A DNA stretch of 64,000 bases, taken from NCBI RefSeq assembly GCF_003325475.1, contig NZ_CP029495.1:2631353-2695352 (forward strand). The letters run 5' to 3'. Source of the DNA: Chromobacterium phragmitis (GTDB lineage Bacteria; Pseudomonadota; Gammaproteobacteria; Burkholderiales; Chromobacteriaceae). The stretch's first letter is position 1. Every line of letters begins with the position of its first letter. The position numbers were made by a program, and so were the translations under genes. The notes below the pieces were generated by a model that did not search any database, was not told the DNA's origin, and was given only the letters and a program-made list of their open reading frames with translations. Below are positions 6,586-49,801 of the stretch, piece after piece.

Positions 6586-6679
6586 GGAGAAATGGCCGAG
6601 TGGTCGAAGGCACTTCCCTGCTAAGGAAGCATACGGGCTTAAACCTGTATCGAGGGTTCGAATCCCTCTTTCTCCGCCA
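6586..6679 (+). tRNA. tRNA-Ser (anticodon GCT)
   Basis: Cloverleaf with long variable arm, anticodon loop cuGCUaa, T-loop GGTTCGAATCC, 3' CCA encoded. Confidence 0.85.
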
Positions 6680-6685
6680 GATGCC

Positions 6686-6762
6686 GCACCCGTAGCTCAG
6701 TTGGATAGAGTATCTGGCTACGAACCAGAGGGTCGGGCGTTCGAATCGCTCCGGGTGCACCA
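6686..6762 (+). tRNA. tRNA-Arg (anticodon ACG)
   Basis: GCACCCGTAGCTCAGTTGGATAGAGT… with anticodon loop cuACGaa; T-loop GTTCGAATC; CCA encoded. Confidence 0.85.
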
Positions 6763-6766
6763 AGAC

Positions 6767-6841
6767 GTCCCTATAGTTTAGCGGTTAGAACACCGCCCTT
6801 TCACGGCGGTGGCCGGGGTTCGATTCCCCGTGGGGACGCCA
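6767..6841 (+). tRNA. tRNA-Glu (anticodon TTC)
   Basis: GTCCCTATAGTTTAGCGGTTAGAACACC… with anticodon loop cuTTCac; T-loop GGTTCGATTCC; CCA encoded. Confidence 0.85.
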
Positions 6842-7356: not shown

Positions 7357-7431
7357 TGGCGTCCCCACGGGGAATCGAACCCCGGCTACCGCCGTGAAAG
7401 GGCGGTGTTCTAACCGCTAAACTATAGGGAC
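7357..7431 (-). tRNA. tRNA-Glu (anticodon TTC)
   Basis: Reverse complement of the + strand tRNA-Glu with one substitution. Confidence 0.85.
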
Positions 7432-7434
7432 AGC

Positions 7435-7511
7435 TGGTGCACCCGGAGCGATTCGAACGCCCGACCCTCTGGTTCGTAGCCAGATACTCTATCCAACTGA
7501 GCTACGGGTGC
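7435..7511 (-). tRNA. tRNA-Arg (anticodon ACG)
   Basis: Reverse complement identical to the + strand tRNA-Arg. Confidence 0.85.
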
Positions 7512-7516
7512 AGCTT

Positions 7517-7591
7517 TGGCGTCCCCACGGGGAATCGAACCCCGGCTACCGCCGTGAAAGGGCGGTGTTCTAACCGCTAAACTATAGGGAC
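7517..7591 (-). tRNA. tRNA-Glu (anticodon TTC), second copy
   Basis: Same sequence as 7357-7431. Confidence 0.85.
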
Positions 7592-7600
7592 GCTGAGTTG

Positions 7601-7677
7601 TGGTGCACCCGGAGCGATTCGAACGCCCGACCCTCTGGTTCGTAGCCAGATACTCTATCCAACTGAGCTACGGGTGC
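7601..7677 (-). tRNA. tRNA-Arg (anticodon ACG), second copy
   Basis: Same sequence as 7435-7511. Confidence 0.85.
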
Positions 7678-29252: not shown

Positions 29253-30848
29253 TCAGACCCGGCCGGACTCTCGGATCGCCTGCCAGCTCAGGCCGAAGCG
29301 CGCCAGGTATTTGCGCAGCCGGTCGGCGTCGTTGGGGTTGGCCTTGTCCAGCCGCGACATGGCGAACAGGCGGCGGCCGGCGTCGGACAGCGAGTCCGCC
29401 TGGCGGCAGACGCGCAGCACGGCCTCCAGTTGCGCGCGGTCGAACAGGTCAAGCGCAGCTTGCCGCTCCGCGCTCAGCGGCGCGAGCGCGGCCGAGTCGC
29501 CGCCCTCATCTTGCCACTCGCGCCGCAGGCGCTGGATTTCCTCGTCCACCACCGCGTCGTCGATGCGGCCAGCGTCGGCCAGCGTGGCCATCCGCGTCAC
29601 CGATGCCGACAGCTCGCGGAAATTGCCCGGCCAGCGCGCCTGCGGCGACAGCGCGAAGTCCAGGTAGCCGCGGCGGGCCTCGGCGTTGAAACGCGCGTGG
29701 CGTCCCTGCTCGCCGGCGTGGCGCGCCAGTTCGAATTCCAGGTTGGGCTCGATGTCCTCGCGCCGTTCGGCCAGGGCGGGCAGTTCGAAATTCCACAGAT
29801 TGATGCGCGCGTACAAGTCCTCGCGGAACTTGCCATCGCGCACCCATTGCCGCAGGTCGCGCATGGTGCCGCACACCAGCTGGAAGTCGCTGGTCGCCTC
29901 GCGGTCGCCGCCGAAAGGAAAGAAGCGTTTTTCTTCGATCGCCTTCAGCAGCATCGCTTGCTCGTCCAGCCCCAGTTCGCCGATCTCGTCCAGGAACAGC
30001 AGGCCGTCGTCAGCGCCGCGCAGCAGGCCGGCCCGCTCGCTCAGCGCGCCGGTGAAGGCGCCTTTGACGTGGCCGAACAGCGCCGACATCGCGCTGTCGC
30101 CGCGCAAGGTGGCGCAGTTGACCTCGACGAAGCGGCCGGCCAGCTGATGGCGGGCCTTTTTCACCTCGTACAGACGTCGAGCCAGCTGGCTCTTGCCGGC
30201 GCCGGTGGGGCCGCGCAGCAGGATGGGGGCGGACGAGCGCGCGGCCACCCGCTCGATCTGCTCGATCATGCGGTTGAAGCGCGGGTTGCGGGTGGCGATG
30301 CCGGACTTGAGGAAGGCCACGGTGTCCTCGCTTTGCTGCGCGAAGCGGCTGGCGATGCGGTCGTAGCGGGCCAGGTCCAGATCGATCACGCTGACCAGCC
30401 CGGCGAAGTCGTTGTCCTGCCGGGTCGGCGAGCTTTGCAGCAGCCGCGCCGGGATGCGGCGCGATTCTGCCAGCAGGAACCAGCAAATCTGCGCGACGTG
30501 GGTGCCGGTGGTGATGTGCAGCAGGTAGTCCTCGTGGTCTGCGTCGAACGGGTAGCGGCCGGCGAAATCGTCCAGCGCCGAGTACATTTCGCCGAAATCC
30601 CACGGGTCTTCCAGGTTCAGCGCATGCAGCCTCACCTCGGTGCCGGGAGACGCTTCCGCGATGTCGCGCGCGGTCTGCTCCGCCAGTTTCCGGTGGTGGT
30701 TGTCGTGCAGCAGCTCCAGCCGCGCCAGCGGCAACTGCGGCTGGCGGCAGATGCCGACGCTGGGCCGCCATTTGCGCCAGCGCGCCGCGCCGTAGCCGCC
30801 GTTGTCCAGTACCGTGCCCAGAAACCCTATCGCCACCTTGCTGCGCAT
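29253..30848 (-). CDS. rtcR: Sigma-54-dependent transcriptional activator RtcR (CARF-domain N-terminus + AAA+ + HTH)
   Basis: 531 aa. N-terminus MRSKVAIGFLGTVLD… typical of the RtcR CARF domain; AAA+ Walker A GPTGAGKS; ESELFGH-equivalent (SALFGHVKGAFTG); C-terminal HTH. Divergent from a sigma-54 promoter. Confidence 0.88.
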   Translation of the reverse strand: MRSKVAIGFLGTVLDNGGYGAARWRKWRPSVGICRQPQLPLARLELLHDNHHRKLAEQTARDIAEASPGTEVRLHALNLEDPWDFGEMYSALDDFAGRYPFDADHEDYLLHITTGTHVAQICWFLLAESRRIPARLLQSSPTRQDNDFAGLVSVIDLDLARYDRIASRFAQQSEDTVAFLKSGIATRNPRFNRMIEQIERVAARSSAPILLRGPTGAGKSQLARRLYEVKKARHQLAGRFVEVNCATLRGDSAMSALFGHVKGAFTGALSERAGLLRGADDGLLFLDEIGELGLDEQAMLLKAIEEKRFFPFGGDREATSDFQLVCGTMRDLRQWVRDGKFREDLYARINLWNFELPALAERREDIEPNLEFELARHAGEQGRHARFNAEARRGYLDFALSPQARWPGNFRELSASVTRMATLADAGRIDDAVVDEEIQRLRREWQDEGGDSAALAPLSAERQAALDLFDRAQLEAVLRVCRQADSLSDAGRRLFAMSRLDKANPNDADRLRKYLARFGLSWQAIRESGRV

Positions 30849-30880
30849 TGCTTATCCATTTTTATATTCGACTAGATGAT

Positions 30881-30956
30881 TTTATCGAAAAATGAATGGG
30901 CAGGTAAGGCGGGAGAGGGCTGGACTCGGGTGGCGGAAAATAATTTATCGATATTT
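30881..30956 (+). promoter_or_regulatory. Putative upstream activator region for RtcR (two TTTATCGA-containing AT-rich boxes)
   Basis: TTTATCGAAAAAT at 30881-30893 and TTTATCGATATTT at 30944-30956, 55-115 bp upstream of the -24/-12 element. The intervening AT-rich DNA is compatible with a bending site. Assignment is inferential. Confidence 0.35.
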
Positions 30957-30997
30957 ATCAGTCTCTTGGTAATTATTTCAGGGTGTTTTCAGCCGGC

Positions 30998-31013
30998 TGG
31001 CACGGTTCTGGCA
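30998..31013 (+). promoter_or_regulatory. Sigma-54 (-24/-12) promoter TGGCAC-N5-TGGCA
   Basis: TGGCACggttcTGGCA matches the RpoN consensus (GG at -24, GC at -12). Oriented toward the SPFH-rtcB operon and divergent from rtcR. Confidence 0.75.
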
Positions 31014-31136
31014 AAGATAGCCTCGACCGAGCGGAAGCCATCATGGCCCACGGGAGGCGGTTGCCACCGCCCCGGTGCGCGGCGCCAGCCAAGCTGTCGC
31101 GGCCGCGCATGCCGCCAATGGCGGATGCCCGGTCTC

Positions 31137-31179
31137 GGCGATGAAGGGCTGAAAGCGGGTTCGATTCCCGCCATCGCCA
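31137..31179 (+). ncRNA. Candidate tRNA-like minihelix (acceptor-like stem + T-arm) in the rtcB operon leader; possible Y-RNA/YrlA-like module
   Basis: GGCGATG…GCGGGttcgattCCCGC CATCGCC A: a 7-bp acceptor-like stem closing a canonical T-arm (GGTTCGATTCC), no anticodon arm. Lies 125 nt downstream of the sigma-54 promoter and about 250 nt before the first CDS. Confidence 0.4.
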
Positions 31180-31190
31180 TCTTGGGTAAG

Positions 31191-31220
31191 GGCGCTTGCG
31201 CCTGCGGGTTCGAATCCCGC
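31191..31220 (+). ncRNA. Second T-arm-like element (GCGGGttcgaatCCCGC) preceded by a small GC hairpin, same leader
   Basis: GGCGCttgCGCC hairpin followed by a perfect T-arm consensus GGTTCGAATCC. Not part of any tRNA cloverleaf. Confidence 0.35.
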
Positions 31221-31429
31221 GTTTGACACTCTCGAGCAGCACCGAACCGGCGCGGCCCTGGCCGCCGCCGCAGGCCGCCGATGCCGGCCCCGTCCGGCGG
31301 GCAGCCGGCGGAGCCGACGCGCAGCGGAAATCACGCCGGCGCTTCGCCCCCGCCAGGCCCCTCGCCGGGCCGGACAGGCATCCGCGCTTGCGGCGCAACC
31401 GGTTCAACCATTGAAGAAAGAAAACGAAG

Positions 31430-32568
31430 ATGAAACTGTGGCGAACATTCCTGGTGAAGAAGAACGAACGCGGCCTGTTGCTGCGCGACGGCGATTTCGT
31501 GGCGATCCTGCAGCCGGGCGAATACCCATACTTCGATCCGCGCCAGCGTTACGCGGTGGAGCCGTGCCCGCTGCGCAAGGGCCGTTTCCAGCACGCGCTG
31601 GCCGATTATCTGCGCGAGCATGAGCCGGCGCTGCTGGACGAGCACTTCCATGTCGTCGAAATCGGCGACGAAGAAGTGGGCCTGCGCCTTGAGCAAGGCT
31701 CGCTGGCGGAGATCCTGCCGCCGGGCAGCCGCGGCCTGTATTGGAAAGACGCGGCGGCGCTGGAAGTGCGCAAAGCCGATTTGCGCCAGGGCTGCGAAGT
31801 GGCGGCCGAATGGCTGCCGCGCTTGACCCAGGGCAGCCTGCGCGGCAACCCGGTGGCCGGCTTGGCTGGCGTGCTGAACGTGCAGGTGCCGGCCTGGCAT
31901 TGCGGCGTGCTGCGGGTGGACGGCGACGCGCCGCGCCTGCTGCAGCCGGGACGCTACGGTTTCTGGCGCTTCAATCGCGAGCTGGAGGTGGATCTGGTCG
32001 ATACCCGCTTGCAGCCGCTGGAAGTGAGCGGGCAGGAAATCCTGACCCGCGACAAGGTAGGCCTGCGCATCAATCTGGCGGCCAACTGGCGCTACGCCGA
32101 CGTGGCGCTGGCCTTCGCCAAGCTGGCCAAGCCGGCCGACCATGTCTACCGCGAGCTGCAGTTCGGCCTGCGGGCGGCGGTGGGCGAGCGCACGCTGGAC
32201 CAGTTGCTGGAGGACAAAAAGCAATTGGACGAGGTGGTGCTGGCGCACATGCAGGACAAGCTGGCCGGATTCGGCGTGGAAGTGAGCAGCCTGGGCGTCA
32301 AGGACGTGGTGCTGCCGGGCGACATGAAGCAGTTGCTGGCGCAGGTGGTGGAGGCGGAGAAGGCGGCGCAGGCCAATGTGATCCGCCGCCGCGAGGAAAC
32401 CGGCGCCACCCGTTCCCTGCTGAACACGGCCAAGGTGATGGAAGACAACCCGACCGCCTTGCGCTTGAAGGAGCTGGAGACGCTGGAGCGCCTGGCGGAG
32501 CGCATAGACAAGATTTCCGTATTCGGCGGCTTGGACCAGCTGCTGAACGGATTGGTGAAGATCAAGGC

Positions 32569-32572
<4 letters not shown>
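31430..32572 (+). CDS. SPFH/band-7 (slipin-like) domain protein, first gene of the RtcR-controlled operon
   Basis: 380 aa. Central band-7 region (…VGLRINLAANWRYADVALAFAK… then a coiled-coil with EAEKAAQANVIRRREETGA…). ATGA overlap with the rtcB start. Confidence 0.7.
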
Positions 32573-33816
<1,244 letters not shown>

Positions 33817-33857
33817 AAAATAGATGGAGCCGGCCTGCGGGCCGGCGGAAGGACGAT

Positions 33858-34664
33858 ATGTACGCATTCAAATATGACCATCCGCTGGACGACGGCGTGC
33901 GCCGGCGGGTGATGGACGAGCTGGCCGCGCTGGAGCGCCGCCGCGATGTGCGGGTGCTGTACGCCTGCGAGTCGGGCAGCCGCGCCTGGGGCTTCGCCTC
34001 GCCGGACAGCGATTACGACGTGCGCTTTCTGTATGTGCATCGCCCCGAGTGGTATCTGCGGGTAGAGCGGCAGCGCGACGTGATCGAACAGCCTCTGGAC
34101 GACGAACTGGACGTCAGCGGCTGGGAGCTGCGCAAGGCGCTGCAATTGCTTAACCGTTCCAATCCGACGCTGTTCGAGTGGCTGCAATCGCCGCTGGTGT
34201 ACCGCGCCGACGAGGACGCGACGGCGGCGTTGCGCGAGCTGATGCCGGATTTCCACTCGCTGGCGCGCTGCCGCTGGCATTACCTGTCGATGGCGCGCAA
34301 GCACCATCAAGGCTACCTGCAAGGCGAAACCGTGCGGCTGAAGAAGTATTTGTACGTGTTGCGGCCGCTGCTGGCGGTGCGCTGGCTGGACGCCGGCCGT
34401 GGCTTGCCGCCCATGCGCTTCGCCGACCTGGCCGCGGCGACGGTGGACGACGCGCGATTGGCGGACGAGATCAATCATCTGCTGGCCGTCAAGATGGCCG
34501 CCGGCGAGGCGCGTCAGGGACCGCGACTGCCCAGGCTGGACGCTTTCATCGCCGCCATGCTGGCCGAGCCGGCGCCTCCGCTGCCCGGCGGCCATGGCGG
34601 CGACCCGAGGCGGCTGGACGCGCTGTTGCGCCGGTTGGCGCTGGGGGAGGCGCTGGCTGCCTGA
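33858..34664 (+). CDS. Pol-beta-superfamily nucleotidyltransferase domain protein, last gene of the rtcB operon
   Basis: 269 aa. N-terminal GS…DxD minimal nucleotidyltransferase signature (ESGSRAWGFASPDSDYDVRFLYV) followed by a helical domain. Confidence 0.65.
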   Translation: MYAFKYDHPLDDGVRRRVMDELAALERRRDVRVLYACESGSRAWGFASPDSDYDVRFLYVHRPEWYLRVERQRDVIEQPLDDELDVSGWELRKALQLLNRSNPTLFEWLQSPLVYRADEDATAALRELMPDFHSLARCRWHYLSMARKHHQGYLQGETVRLKKYLYVLRPLLAVRWLDAGRGLPPMRFADLAAATVDDARLADEINHLLAVKMAAGEARQGPRLPRLDAFIAAMLAEPAPPLPGGHGGDPRRLDALLRRLALGEALAA

Positions 34665-34768
34665 ACGGGCGGGAATGGCCATGACATGGCTGGCCGCTTC
34701 GATGATATATTAAATCCATTGTCATCAAGCGGACGGCGTGCCCGGCGCGCCTCCACCGGAGAGACGGC

Positions 34769-35152
34769 ATGGCGATGGATTGGGCGATGGCTGCCGGGCG
34801 CTGGCTGGGTTGGGCCTGGCTGGGCGTGCTGGCGGGATGCGGCGGCGGCAAGCCGCAGGCGGCCGACCTGCAAAGGGCGGAATCGATGCGGCCGGCCGAC
34901 GCGAGGCTGGCGGGAAAATACCAGCGTTCCTGCCTGATCTGCCATGGCAACCAGGCCAGCCAGGCGCCGCTGGCCGGCTTCGCGCCGGCCTGGAAGCCTA
35001 GGCTGGAGAAGGGCATGCCGCTGCTGCTGGCCCATGTCCGCGACGGGTTCAACGCGATGCCGGTGCGCGGCTACTGCAACGATTGCAGCGACGAGGAATT
35101 CGGCCGCCTGATCGCCTTCATGGCGGGAGACGGCGGGGAGGGCGCGCGATGA
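34769..35152 (+). CDS. Small c-type cytochrome (class I, lipoprotein-type signal)
   Basis: 127 aa. Signal/lipobox (LAGCGGG) and a single haem-binding CLICH motif with downstream Met ligand region. ATGA overlap with the next gene. Confidence 0.7.
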   Translation: MAMDWAMAAGRWLGWAWLGVLAGCGGGKPQAADLQRAESMRPADARLAGKYQRSCLICHGNQASQAPLAGFAPAWKPRLEKGMPLLLAHVRDGFNAMPVRGYCNDCSDEEFGRLIAFMAGDGGEGAR

Positions 35153-48824: not shown

Positions 48825-49801
48825 GGCCAGCAGGCTGGGCGGATGGGTGGGGACTTGATTGTGCAGCAGCCAGCGGCTGCGGGCGGGATGACGGTTGTTC
48901 AGGGAAAACGCGAGATGCGATGAACTGCGGGTGATGCTAGGCATGGCAAAACCCTCCTGGATAGGTGCTTAACCCTGCCAACCCCAACGCCAAGTAGGGG
49001 TGGCAGGCACATGGCGGGATTGGCGTACCGATCCAGGAGCGGCGCATCATAGATGCTCCCACCATGGCCCGCCATAGAGGACGTGCAATGGTGTACGGAC
49101 GCGACAAGGCCCAGCCTTGCACAGAAGTCCGCCTGAATGCGGGACGCCAATCCCGGTGCCGCTATTGAACGGCACGATTGAGATTATCCGGCTGGAAGGC
49201 TTGCTAGGCAAGCAATTGGGGCTGGAATAGGGTGTGCTTTGGGGCAGTACGTAGAATCCGCTGCGCGGCTGATGGTTTGGATTGCCGGGGTTGCCCGGCG
49301 GCAGGCTTGAAGGGATTGGGGCGCGTCGCAAACGCGCTTGCGTTTTGCCAGCGATGAATAGGGCATGACATTTTGCCGTGGCTTGCTTAATCGGTAGCTG
49401 AACCGAACCGACTTGCCCCCATCCCATCAGCGCAAGCCGACTTCGGAGCCATTTTCAAGGTTTTAAGACGCCGGTTTGTTCGACGTCGCGCGACGGTAGC
49501 GCGCGGCTAGTTCCGGCGGCTCCTTGAAAATGGCTTCGGAGGCGGGGTTTCGCAGCGCTGTTGGGTCGCCTTTTCTTTCGTCCATTTCTTTTGGCGAAGC
49601 AAAAGAAATGGACCCGTCCAGCCGGGCGGAACCGGCACTTAACGGTCAGTCCGCGAAGCGGACACAAACTAATCTGTATTACGTGGTAGCCGTTTGACCT
49701 TGGTGGCTCAGTCGCGATTTGCGGACTTTAAACGAATTGCGAACTTCAAGCTTTGCTAGGCTAGTGAATGAATTATAATTTTATTGAGTGAAAAGGTGAA
49801 A

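Follow-up and report, generated by a model that had tools for sequence, protein, structure and literature searches.

The transcript of an RNA repair operon in Chromobacterium phragmitis appears to begin with a long, structured leader that carries two tandem tRNA-like units. This leader lies in a 64,000 nt stretch of the genome (contig NZ_CP029495.1, positions 2,631,353 to 2,695,352; hereafter the window, whose own numbering is used throughout) and directly precedes genes for an SPFH/Band-7 protein, the RNA ligase RtcB and the nucleotidyltransferase RlaP. Judged by sequence comparison, it is homologous to the leaders of ~85 related loci, and its elements belong to a widespread, covarying, leader-embedded tRNA-like pair that is tied to Band-7-RtcB operons. 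These elements are not decoding tRNAs, transfer-messenger RNA (tmRNA) or Y RNAs. We hold, with about even confidence, that the leader is the C. phragmitis version of a conserved structured RNA of Band-7-RtcB-RlaP operons, in which the tandem tRNA-like modules are central and act with the Band-7 protein. The most likely role that we infer for them is that of tRNA-like RNAs co-transcribed with repair genes and acting with a vault-like partner.

A structured leader shared by Band-7-RtcB operons

Transcription is predicted to start at ~31024, which gives a leader of ~406 nt ahead of the ATG at 31430. The promoter and the parts of the leader are as follows.

30998 to 31013, plus strand: sigma-54 -24/-12 promoter TGGCACGGTTCTGGCA, with one mismatch to TGGCAC-N5-TTGCW
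31025 to 31134, plus strand: 5′ domain of the leader, ~110 nt, with hairpin A (31053-31073), helix B (31074-31113) and closing long-range stems
31137 to 31179, plus strand: unit 1, a tRNA-like minihelix with a 7-bp acceptor stem, an 11-nt linker, a T-arm and discriminator A31179
31183 to 31227, plus strand: remnant of unit 2, UUGGGUAA, with hairpin GGGCG-CUUG-CGCCU (31190-31203), the T-arm (31204-31220) and then GUUUGAC
31236 to 31405, plus strand: 3′ domain of the leader, ~165 nt, with GCAGCA (31236-31241), an outer long-range helix and predicted G+C-rich inner helices

A preliminary description of this region, made from the sequence alone, had listed a 7-bp stem closing a perfect T-arm, a second perfect T-arm and an upstream sigma-54 promoter. 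The stem and T-arm lie at 31137-31178, the second T-arm (GCGGGTTCGAATCCCGC, a perfect 17-mer) at 31204-31220 and the promoter at 30998-31013, and the other sequence features listed there are all present as well. The description also reported the lack of a complete cloverleaf, and this is borne out: ARAGORN finds none in the leader (its calls in the window are the seven genuine tRNAs at 6.5-7.7 kb), the Rfam tRNA family does not match the leader at E<=10, and a cloverleaf covariance model of unit 2 recovers a T-arm only. Its label for the region, the rtcB operon leader, requires one correction: the first coding sequence after the leader encodes the Band-7/SPFH protein, not RtcB. The presence of two such T-arms is far beyond chance. 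The 17-mer pattern GCGGGTTCGAWTCCCGC, when up to two mismatches are permitted, occurs three times in the 64-kb window against an expectation of 0.09; two of these occurrences are the exact leader T-arms, and the third lies inside a genuine tRNA-Ser.

For comparison, 85 related loci were assembled, 80 of them through alignment of Band-7 homologues (55-68% protein identity) in a set of bacterial assemblies with one genome per species, and five Neisseriales relatives by exact look-up. These loci share a layout in which the sigma-54 promoter is followed after ~110 nt by the motif ATGCCGC, after a further ~50-75 nt by the first T-arm, after ~68-79 nt by the second T-arm (GCGGGTTCGAnTCCCGC), and after ~270-300 nt by the Band-7 start codon. 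Two perfect T-arms spaced 68-79 nt apart occur upstream of the Band-7 gene in 61 of the first 80 loci, and two tandem tRNA-like units are present at the same position in ~80 of all 85. Both units form complete cloverleaves in the majority of Pseudomonas loci. ARAGORN reports one or two tRNA-like genes in the leaders of 56 of the 85 loci, with no consistent anticodon; the anticodon loop is abnormal in 24 of its 69 calls, and the others are distributed among 16 identities. At the positions of the units the Rfam tRNA family scores 33-51 bits, and in seven related loci these are the only Rfam matches.

The genetic setting is conserved along with the leader. Searches with tblastn using the window proteins locate RtcR in 60 of the 85 loci, nearly always divergent and just upstream of the leader, and RtcB in 70, nearly always directly downstream of Band-7; RlaP is found within a 4-kb flank in 29. 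Furthermore, two viral contigs encode distant Band-7 homologues (36-39% identity) with a tRNA-like element ~470-540 nt upstream.

Unit 1 is an acceptor/T-arm minihelix

In unit 1, GGCGATG (31137-31143) pairs with CATCGCC (31172-31178) entirely through Watson-Crick pairs and closes the T-arm GCGGG-TTCGATT-CCCGC (31155-31171), a perfect 17-mer. Folded alone, the sequence forms precisely this minihelix (-19.4 kcal/mol). Its 3′ sequence is AUCU, the discriminator A followed by UCU, with no encoded CCA. In its counterpart in Betaproteobacteria, a 7-bp acceptor stem is combined with a T-arm and a linker of 12-29 nt, which usually folds into a small hairpin; CCA is encoded within 5 nt 3′ of the acceptor stem in 35 of 55 minihelix-type loci.

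A covariance model of unit 1 (R2), built from 12 other loci with the window left out, matches 31135-31182 over its full length (34.2 bits, E 2e-8) apart from a linker deletion of 4 nt, and the genuine tRNAs of the window give local T-loop matches only (11-15 bits). Across all loci R2 returns 44 matches, which represent 42 distinct sequences. In the model-fitted alignment of these sequences, compensatory changes are seen at all seven pairs of the acceptor helix, and 93% of cells are paired compared with 72% in shuffled and 40-56% in slid controls. The GGCGAUG/CAUCGCC acceptor is identical in unit 1 of Vogesella. In the first pair of the T-stem both bases are changed relative to Vogesella (C-G to G-C), which suggests that the pair was maintained. 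By these comparative data, unit 1 is a genuine member of a covarying 'minihelix' class and a conserved module in its own right.

At E<=10, Rfam searches of the window and of the leader return nothing for the leader except two sub-threshold matches, both on unit 1. One is to the two ends of the tmRNA model (31137-31182, 32.5 bits against a gathering score of 47); the other is a weak match to mascRNA-menRNA (23 bits, E 0.08).

Unit 2 is a reduced cloverleaf

The second unit has a well-defined counterpart in the related loci. A cloverleaf covariance model (R1), built from 50 of them, matches ~80 of the 85 loci over its full length where the unit is expected, with scores of 49-92 bits. Among the 50 sequences, the cloverleaf is 88% paired, compared with 75% in shuffled and 33-42% in slid controls, and 15 of 21 pairs show compensatory changes. 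In Betaproteobacteria this unit takes the form of a cloverleaf whose acceptor stem is short (~5 bp) and whose D-arm is invariant; its anticodon loop varies from 4 to 8 nt and is often a UUCG or GNRA tetraloop, and the unit does not decode.

Alignment of the window with these relatives reveals that the D stem-loop has been precisely deleted, leaving UUGGGUA|AGGGC, and that the anticodon arm is represented by the CUUG-loop hairpin at 31190-31203. The variable region is reduced to a single nucleotide, and the 3′ acceptor strand GUUUGA can form at best G-U pairs with UUGGGU. An unrelated Rhizobacter genome (L064) has undergone the same precise loss of the D-arm and has kept the hairpin and the T-arm. 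Unit 2 of the window is thus what remains, in reduced form, of a cloverleaf that relatives keep intact, and the window units, by alignment, are the most reduced form among the loci compared, outright loss aside.

The extent of this reduction raises the alternative that the elements in the window are non-functional relics, with the minihelix and the orphan T-arm being scars of decay after inheritance or acquisition. Such decay would account for a unit 2 that lacks a D-arm and acceptor pairing and for a unit 1 that lacks the mini-hairpin and CCA. It would also be in keeping with the absence of rtcA from the operon (no rtcA follows rlaP at 34665-35100, where a cytochrome c gene is found instead), with the truncation of RtcR in one strain, and with the isolation of the Band-7 protein, which has no close relative in the genus outside C. 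phragmitis (the next match has 71% identity). Even so, both T-arms are perfect 17-mers, the 7-bp acceptor stem is fully Watson-Crick, and the first pair of T-stem 1 has changed on both sides relative to Vogesella. The independent Rhizobacter lineage shares the D-arm deletion while keeping the hairpin and T-arm, and the operon open reading frames (ORFs) of the window are intact. Moreover, three other C. phragmitis records (two assemblies and one read-set contig) differ from the window at the same five positions in 680 nt of leader, none of which falls in the units. On balance we regard the relic explanation as improbable. The prior suggestion that the motifs might be remnants of a decayed tRNA gene is half right: it describes unit 2, a reduced cloverleaf remnant, and fails for unit 1, a conserved covarying module.

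Two covarying domains flank the units

The ~110 nt ahead of unit 1 are predicted to form a closed domain. In the window fold, 31025-31041 pairs with 31118-31134 just ahead of unit 1, and the long helix B (31074-31113) draws in part of the invariant AUGCCGCC (31109-31116). An RNAalifold alignment of 33 loci predicts 20 pairs, 14 of them with compensatory changes, and the minimum-free-energy fold of the window has the same architecture. The ATGCCGC motif is found ~110 nt past the promoter in nearly all loci. The 5′ domain is kept even where both RtcR and the sigma-54 promoter are missing from the locus, so it is an RNA feature rather than an activator-binding site.

On the 3′ side, an outer helix between GAACCGG (31244-31250) and CCGGUUC (31399-31405) closes the minimum-free-energy fold of the window, and the following 24 nt (31406-31429), within which the purine-rich ribosome-binding region lies, are unpaired. 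A subset of 36 loci shares a hairpin, a GCAG(U/C)A motif, the outer helix and two further long-range helices 3′ of unit 2. For the 41 pairs of this fold, 86% of cells are paired in the subset compared with 72% in shuffled and 28-45% in slid controls, and 31 pairs have compensatory changes. The fold rests on this 36-sequence subset, and a global alignment of all 76 sequences gave no consensus fold. Both flanking domains thus appear, from covariation, to be conserved structures. Rfam holds no family that matches either domain, whether searched with the window leader at E<=10 or with seven related loci.

The sigma-54 element keeps the same spacing from the leader motifs in most related loci. Neither a sigma-70-like promoter nor an intrinsic terminator is predicted between 30700 and 31600; because nothing of this kind separates the sigma-54 promoter from the genes, the tRNA-like elements form the 5′ part of the operon mRNA. 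As these predictions stand, the units must be co-transcribed with the operon, obligatorily, from the RtcR-dependent promoter. Other explanations for the conservation of the leader were considered and set aside. The five overlapping ORFs on its two strands have no Pfam match, and the patterns of insertions, deletions and compensatory changes fit an RNA rather than a coding sequence. A terminator or attenuator and an internal promoter were likewise sought within the leader, and none is predicted.

Relation to known RNA classes

A class of RNA named b7a-tRNA ('Band-7-associated tRNA') was predicted by Burroughs and Aravind in 2016, as cited in a preprint on the structure of YrlA (bioRxiv 10.1101/312249). 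In the parts of that preprint that concern it, b7a-tRNA is called 'strongly' tRNA-like and possibly redundant with YrlA. The elements in the window correspond to this class as it is summarized there. Like b7a-tRNA, they are non-coding tRNA-like elements beside an SPFH/Band-7 gene in an operon with RtcB (and RlaP), for which an RNA cofactor role analogous to that of Y RNA was proposed, and relatives of the window carry such cloverleaves at the same place. The placement agrees, with leader 31024-31429 directly ahead of Band_7, RtcB and RlaP and the same layout in relatives. Homology to the elements at this position is supported by the R2 match, by the acceptor identical to that of Vogesella and by the alignable 5′ and 3′ domains. 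The difference, relative to the summary of the class, lies in form: the window keeps a minihelix and an orphan T-arm with no cloverleaf, whereas full cloverleaves are found in ~80 of the 85 related loci. To the extent that the preprint conveys the 2016 prediction, the class is already known as a prediction, and the window RNA is the usual RNA partner found with RtcB operons of the Band-7 type. Relative to the literature searched, three things appear to be new: a first unit of minihelix type in which CCA is encoded, the large structured domains on either side, and the natural minimal variant in the window. We found no experimental test of a Band-7-linked tRNA-like RNA in the literature searchable here, and nothing on this RNA in the literature on PA4582/PA4583 or on SPFH proteins with RtcB.

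The closest functional comparison is with YrlA, encoded in the Salmonella rsr-yrlBA-rtcBA operon. The preliminary description was right to see tRNA-mimicking modules within the transcript of an RtcR/sigma-54-controlled RtcB operon, and by analogy the modules of the window may be functional counterparts of YrlA's tRNA-like domain. Both RNAs mimic tRNA without decoding. YrlA, however, has a Ro60-binding stem and a neighbouring rsr gene, whereas the window has a Band-7 partner gene and, of the YrlA-type domain, the acceptor stem and T-arm only; the D-arm is absent, and the usual elbow contact cannot form.

The same description proposed a Y RNA or YrlA homologue working without Ro60, for which the shared top half of tRNA in an RtcR-controlled RtcB operon is the main argument. 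We consider this very improbable. No Y-RNA family of Rfam matches 30500-32000 at E<=10, and no rsr/Ro60 (TROVE) gene is present in the operon or among the genes called up to 3 kb to each side of Band-7. A Ro-binding stem was not identified, although no separate search for such a helix was made, and the homology of the leader is to the Band-7-linked class and not to rsr-linked RNAs. The missing Ro60 gene, which had been called unusual, is not so in this setting, where the partner gene encodes Band-7 and where ~80 of the 85 loci have tRNA-like elements.

Several other candidates can be rejected. A decoding tRNA would require a cloverleaf whose anticodon loop has 7 nt and, as in the tRNA genes of this genome, an encoded CCA; the leader of the window has neither. 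With regard to tmRNA, the Rfam score is below the gathering score, 326 internal positions of the model are replaced by 6 nt, and ARAGORN reports none. Unit 1 does share with the tRNA-like domain of tmRNA, and with tRNA minihelices, a 7-bp acceptor stacked on a T-arm with no anticodon arm, whereas the pseudoknots, tag reading frame and CCA of tmRNA are missing. An alanine-accepting minihelix is also excluded, because the identity pair G3:U70 is replaced by C3-G70. A general role as a decoy for anticodon nucleases is unlikely given that the anticodon loops of the family span 4-8 nt and are often stable tetraloops, and that the window leader has no anticodon arm. RNAs of the mascRNA/MALAT1 type resemble the units in being tRNA-like modules inside a long transcript and prospective RNase P substrates; they differ in being eukaryotic and unrelated by descent, and for the window RNase P processing is only inferred.

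The operon and its Band-7 protein

The genes that surround the leader are given below.

29253 to 30848, minus strand: rtcR, divergent from the operon, encoding the sigma-54 activator (Pfam RtcR 3.4e-80, with an N-terminal RtcR/CARF domain; Sigma54_activat 4e-48)
31430 to 32572, plus strand: SPFH/Band-7 ('slipin') gene (Pfam Band_7 2.2e-27), whose product is the presumed protein partner of the leader RNA
32569 to 33816, plus strand: rtcB, encoding the RNA 3′-phosphate ligase (Pfam RtcB 2.3e-126; gene call of 415 aa)
33684 to 34664, plus strand, ORF from its first possible start: rlaP (PF10127), encoding a nucleotidyltransferase (Pfam RlaP 4.4e-97; domain from ~33900)

The gene order is therefore RtcR, sigma-54 promoter, leader, Band-7, RtcB and RlaP. 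The public gene call for RlaP covers just 124 aa (34291-34664). Because the longer ORF matches positions 2-248 of the 249-position Pfam RlaP profile in a single uninterrupted stretch, the short call is probably a start-site or gene-calling error rather than a sign of a pseudogene. RlaP extends RNA 3′ ends by 1-2 nucleotides and contributes to restoring the function of over-trimmed tRNAs (PMC12776372).

The Band-7 protein of the window is 100% identical to the C. phragmitis entry 'slipin family protein' of the National Center for Biotechnology Information (NCBI), and its first 150 residues have no Pfam annotation. In its predicted structure (pLDDT 84), two small beta domains at the N terminus accompany an SPFH domain and a long helix. 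In Foldseek comparisons this model aligns with the major vault protein over ~430-440 columns, which is the full length, compared with ~220-260 columns for stomatin, HflK/C and prohibitin. The model suggests that the protein is a soluble, vault-like cage protein. Its predicted fold aligns from end to end with the beta repeats, SPFH domain and long helix of the vault subunit, and as in the vault particle there is a link, here a genetic one, to a small structured RNA. Vaults have an SPFH-like shoulder and small vault RNAs, whereas for the C. phragmitis protein the likeness consists of a predicted fold and gene linkage. A cage-forming scaffold that holds a small RNA is therefore supported by analogy only.

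The loci vary in gene content. In Jeongeupia and Chitinibacter (L085 and L086, 6300-7137) rtcA is kept, and in some relatives a gene for a small zf_Tbcl protein is inserted between Band-7 and RtcB. The Chitinibacter locus also has, just beyond rtcR (569-744), two tandem elements that score 76 bits against the unit 2 model, above most ordinary tRNAs. Chitinimonas lacunae has a remnant locus (L081, 2350-4560) with Band-7 and zf_Tbcl genes, no RtcR, RtcB or RlaP, a single T-arm, and a match of just 21 bits to the cloverleaf model. In another C. phragmitis assembly (GCA_039938345.1; L089, 1747-2419) RtcR is called as a 224-aa fragment consisting of the RtcR/CARF domain only, and the upstream DNA differs; the operon activator may be broken in this strain.

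In ~20 mostly Burkholderiales loci the structured leader is kept and RtcR and the sigma-54 promoter are missing (among them L014, L027, L028, L031, L043, L050, L052, L055, L056, L059, L064, L073 and L074). Many RtcR-less loci have arrays of up to ~10 ordinary tRNA genes (2-3 in a few) on the same strand, ~0.6-3.2 kb upstream of Band-7. These arrays might supply spare tRNAs in connection with the repair operon, or they might belong to a mobile island.

Elsewhere in the window, two inverted tRNA clusters of near-identical copies face each other, Ser-Arg-Glu on the plus strand (6586-6841) and Glu-Arg-Glu-Arg on the minus strand (7357-7677), and all encode CCA. C4 antisense RNA is a phage immunity RNA, and an Rfam match to it at 48996-49079 on the minus strand (53.4 bits against a gathering score of 45) suggests that a prophage is present in the window.

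Possible functions of the leader RNA

The reading that we prefer, with tRNA-like modules acting alongside Band-7, permits the following scheme. When RtcR turns the operon on, the tRNA-like modules would be made in step with the repair proteins. Because CCA is encoded in relatives and the acceptor/T stack is of the type used by RNase P, the modules would probably be excised by tRNA-processing enzymes, with RNase P cutting 5′ of the 12-bp acceptor/T stack and 3′ trimming coming to a halt at the CCA that most relatives, but not the window leader, encode. Once freed, they could serve the vault-like Band-7 protein as an RNA partner (a scaffold, guide or decoy) in the action of RtcB and RlaP on damaged tRNAs, a role that may be likened to that of Y RNA with Ro60. 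Since the anticodon loops of the family vary and the window leader lacks the D-arm and the anticodon arm, the functional core would be the acceptor/T-arm 'top half' of tRNA rather than any part that decodes.

Several observations weigh against this scheme. Unit 2 of the window fails the cloverleaf test, with R1 matching the T-arm at 31204-31220 only (18.3 bits), and its local fold is not better than that of shuffled sequences (z = -0.24). All seven genuine tRNA genes of the window encode CCA and unit 1 does not, and the 11-nt linker of unit 1 is the shortest of those measured. The truncated RtcR in one C. phragmitis strain may mean that the locus is under relaxed selection in the species. In Pseudomonas entomophila (L038, 3530-4000) both units have given way to plain hairpins, and in two other loci (L011 and L015) a single unit is retained; in all three the flanking domains persist. 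These replacements and losses indicate that the units are evolutionarily labile, and they hint that it may be the flanking domains, or an action in cis, that carry the conserved function. Finally, b7a-tRNA had not been validated experimentally according to the portion of the preprint that discusses it (10.1101/312249).

The chief rival to a released RNA is thus a regulatory role in cis, and it is a serious one. The 5′ domain, the units and the 3′ domain might work together in the mRNA without being released, either by recruiting RNase P or repair proteins that set mRNA stability or translation, as in autoregulation, or by reporting the state of tRNA processing and repair. Such a role would explain why the units always occupy the 5′ leader and share the strand of the operon, with neither a terminator nor an internal promoter, why two closed, covarying domains flank them, why the 3′ outer helix of the window ends 24 nt ahead of the start codon, and why the flanking domains outlast units that are lost or swapped for plain hairpins, as in L038. 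It fits less well with the predicted fold, in which no simple sequestration switch is seen because the ribosome-binding region is unpaired. Furthermore, the CCA that follows unit 1 in 35 of 55 loci is hard to explain without a free tRNA-like 3′ end, and the Y RNAs of the Salmonella repair operon rsr-yrlBA-rtcBA are discrete non-coding RNAs (PMC7790460). We regard regulation in cis as a possibility of lower probability than joint action of the modules with Band-7.

A broader proposal, which we advance tentatively and think less probable than our preferred reading, is that beta- and gammaproteobacterial Band-7-RtcB operons have in common a hitherto undescribed three-part structured leader RNA of ~400-500 nt, in which a closed 5′ domain with AUGCCGCC, the tandem modules and a closed 3′ domain act as a unit. 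If so, the leader might be, for example, an assembly platform, or a sensor that links tRNA-processing or repair activity to how a vault-like Band-7 cage is expressed or loaded. In that case C. phragmitis would carry a naturally minimal copy, for which the acceptor/T-arm top half together with a bare T-loop hairpin suffices.

Damaged tRNAs are the signal that turns on bacterial RtcB operons. In the case of RtcR, activation proceeds through tRNA fragments with cyclic phosphate ends (PMC7790460). The pared-down locus of C. phragmitis, with its 42-nt minihelix and one T-arm hairpin, helps to single out the parts of the RNA that may be important and provides a construct small enough to be tractable. 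These modules sit in a much larger covarying leader that has no Rfam family, and their partner protein is predicted to resemble a miniature major vault protein. Together, the observations on the leader and on Band-7 bring into clearer focus a testable idea, that of a repair particle in bacteria built as a 'cage plus small RNA'.

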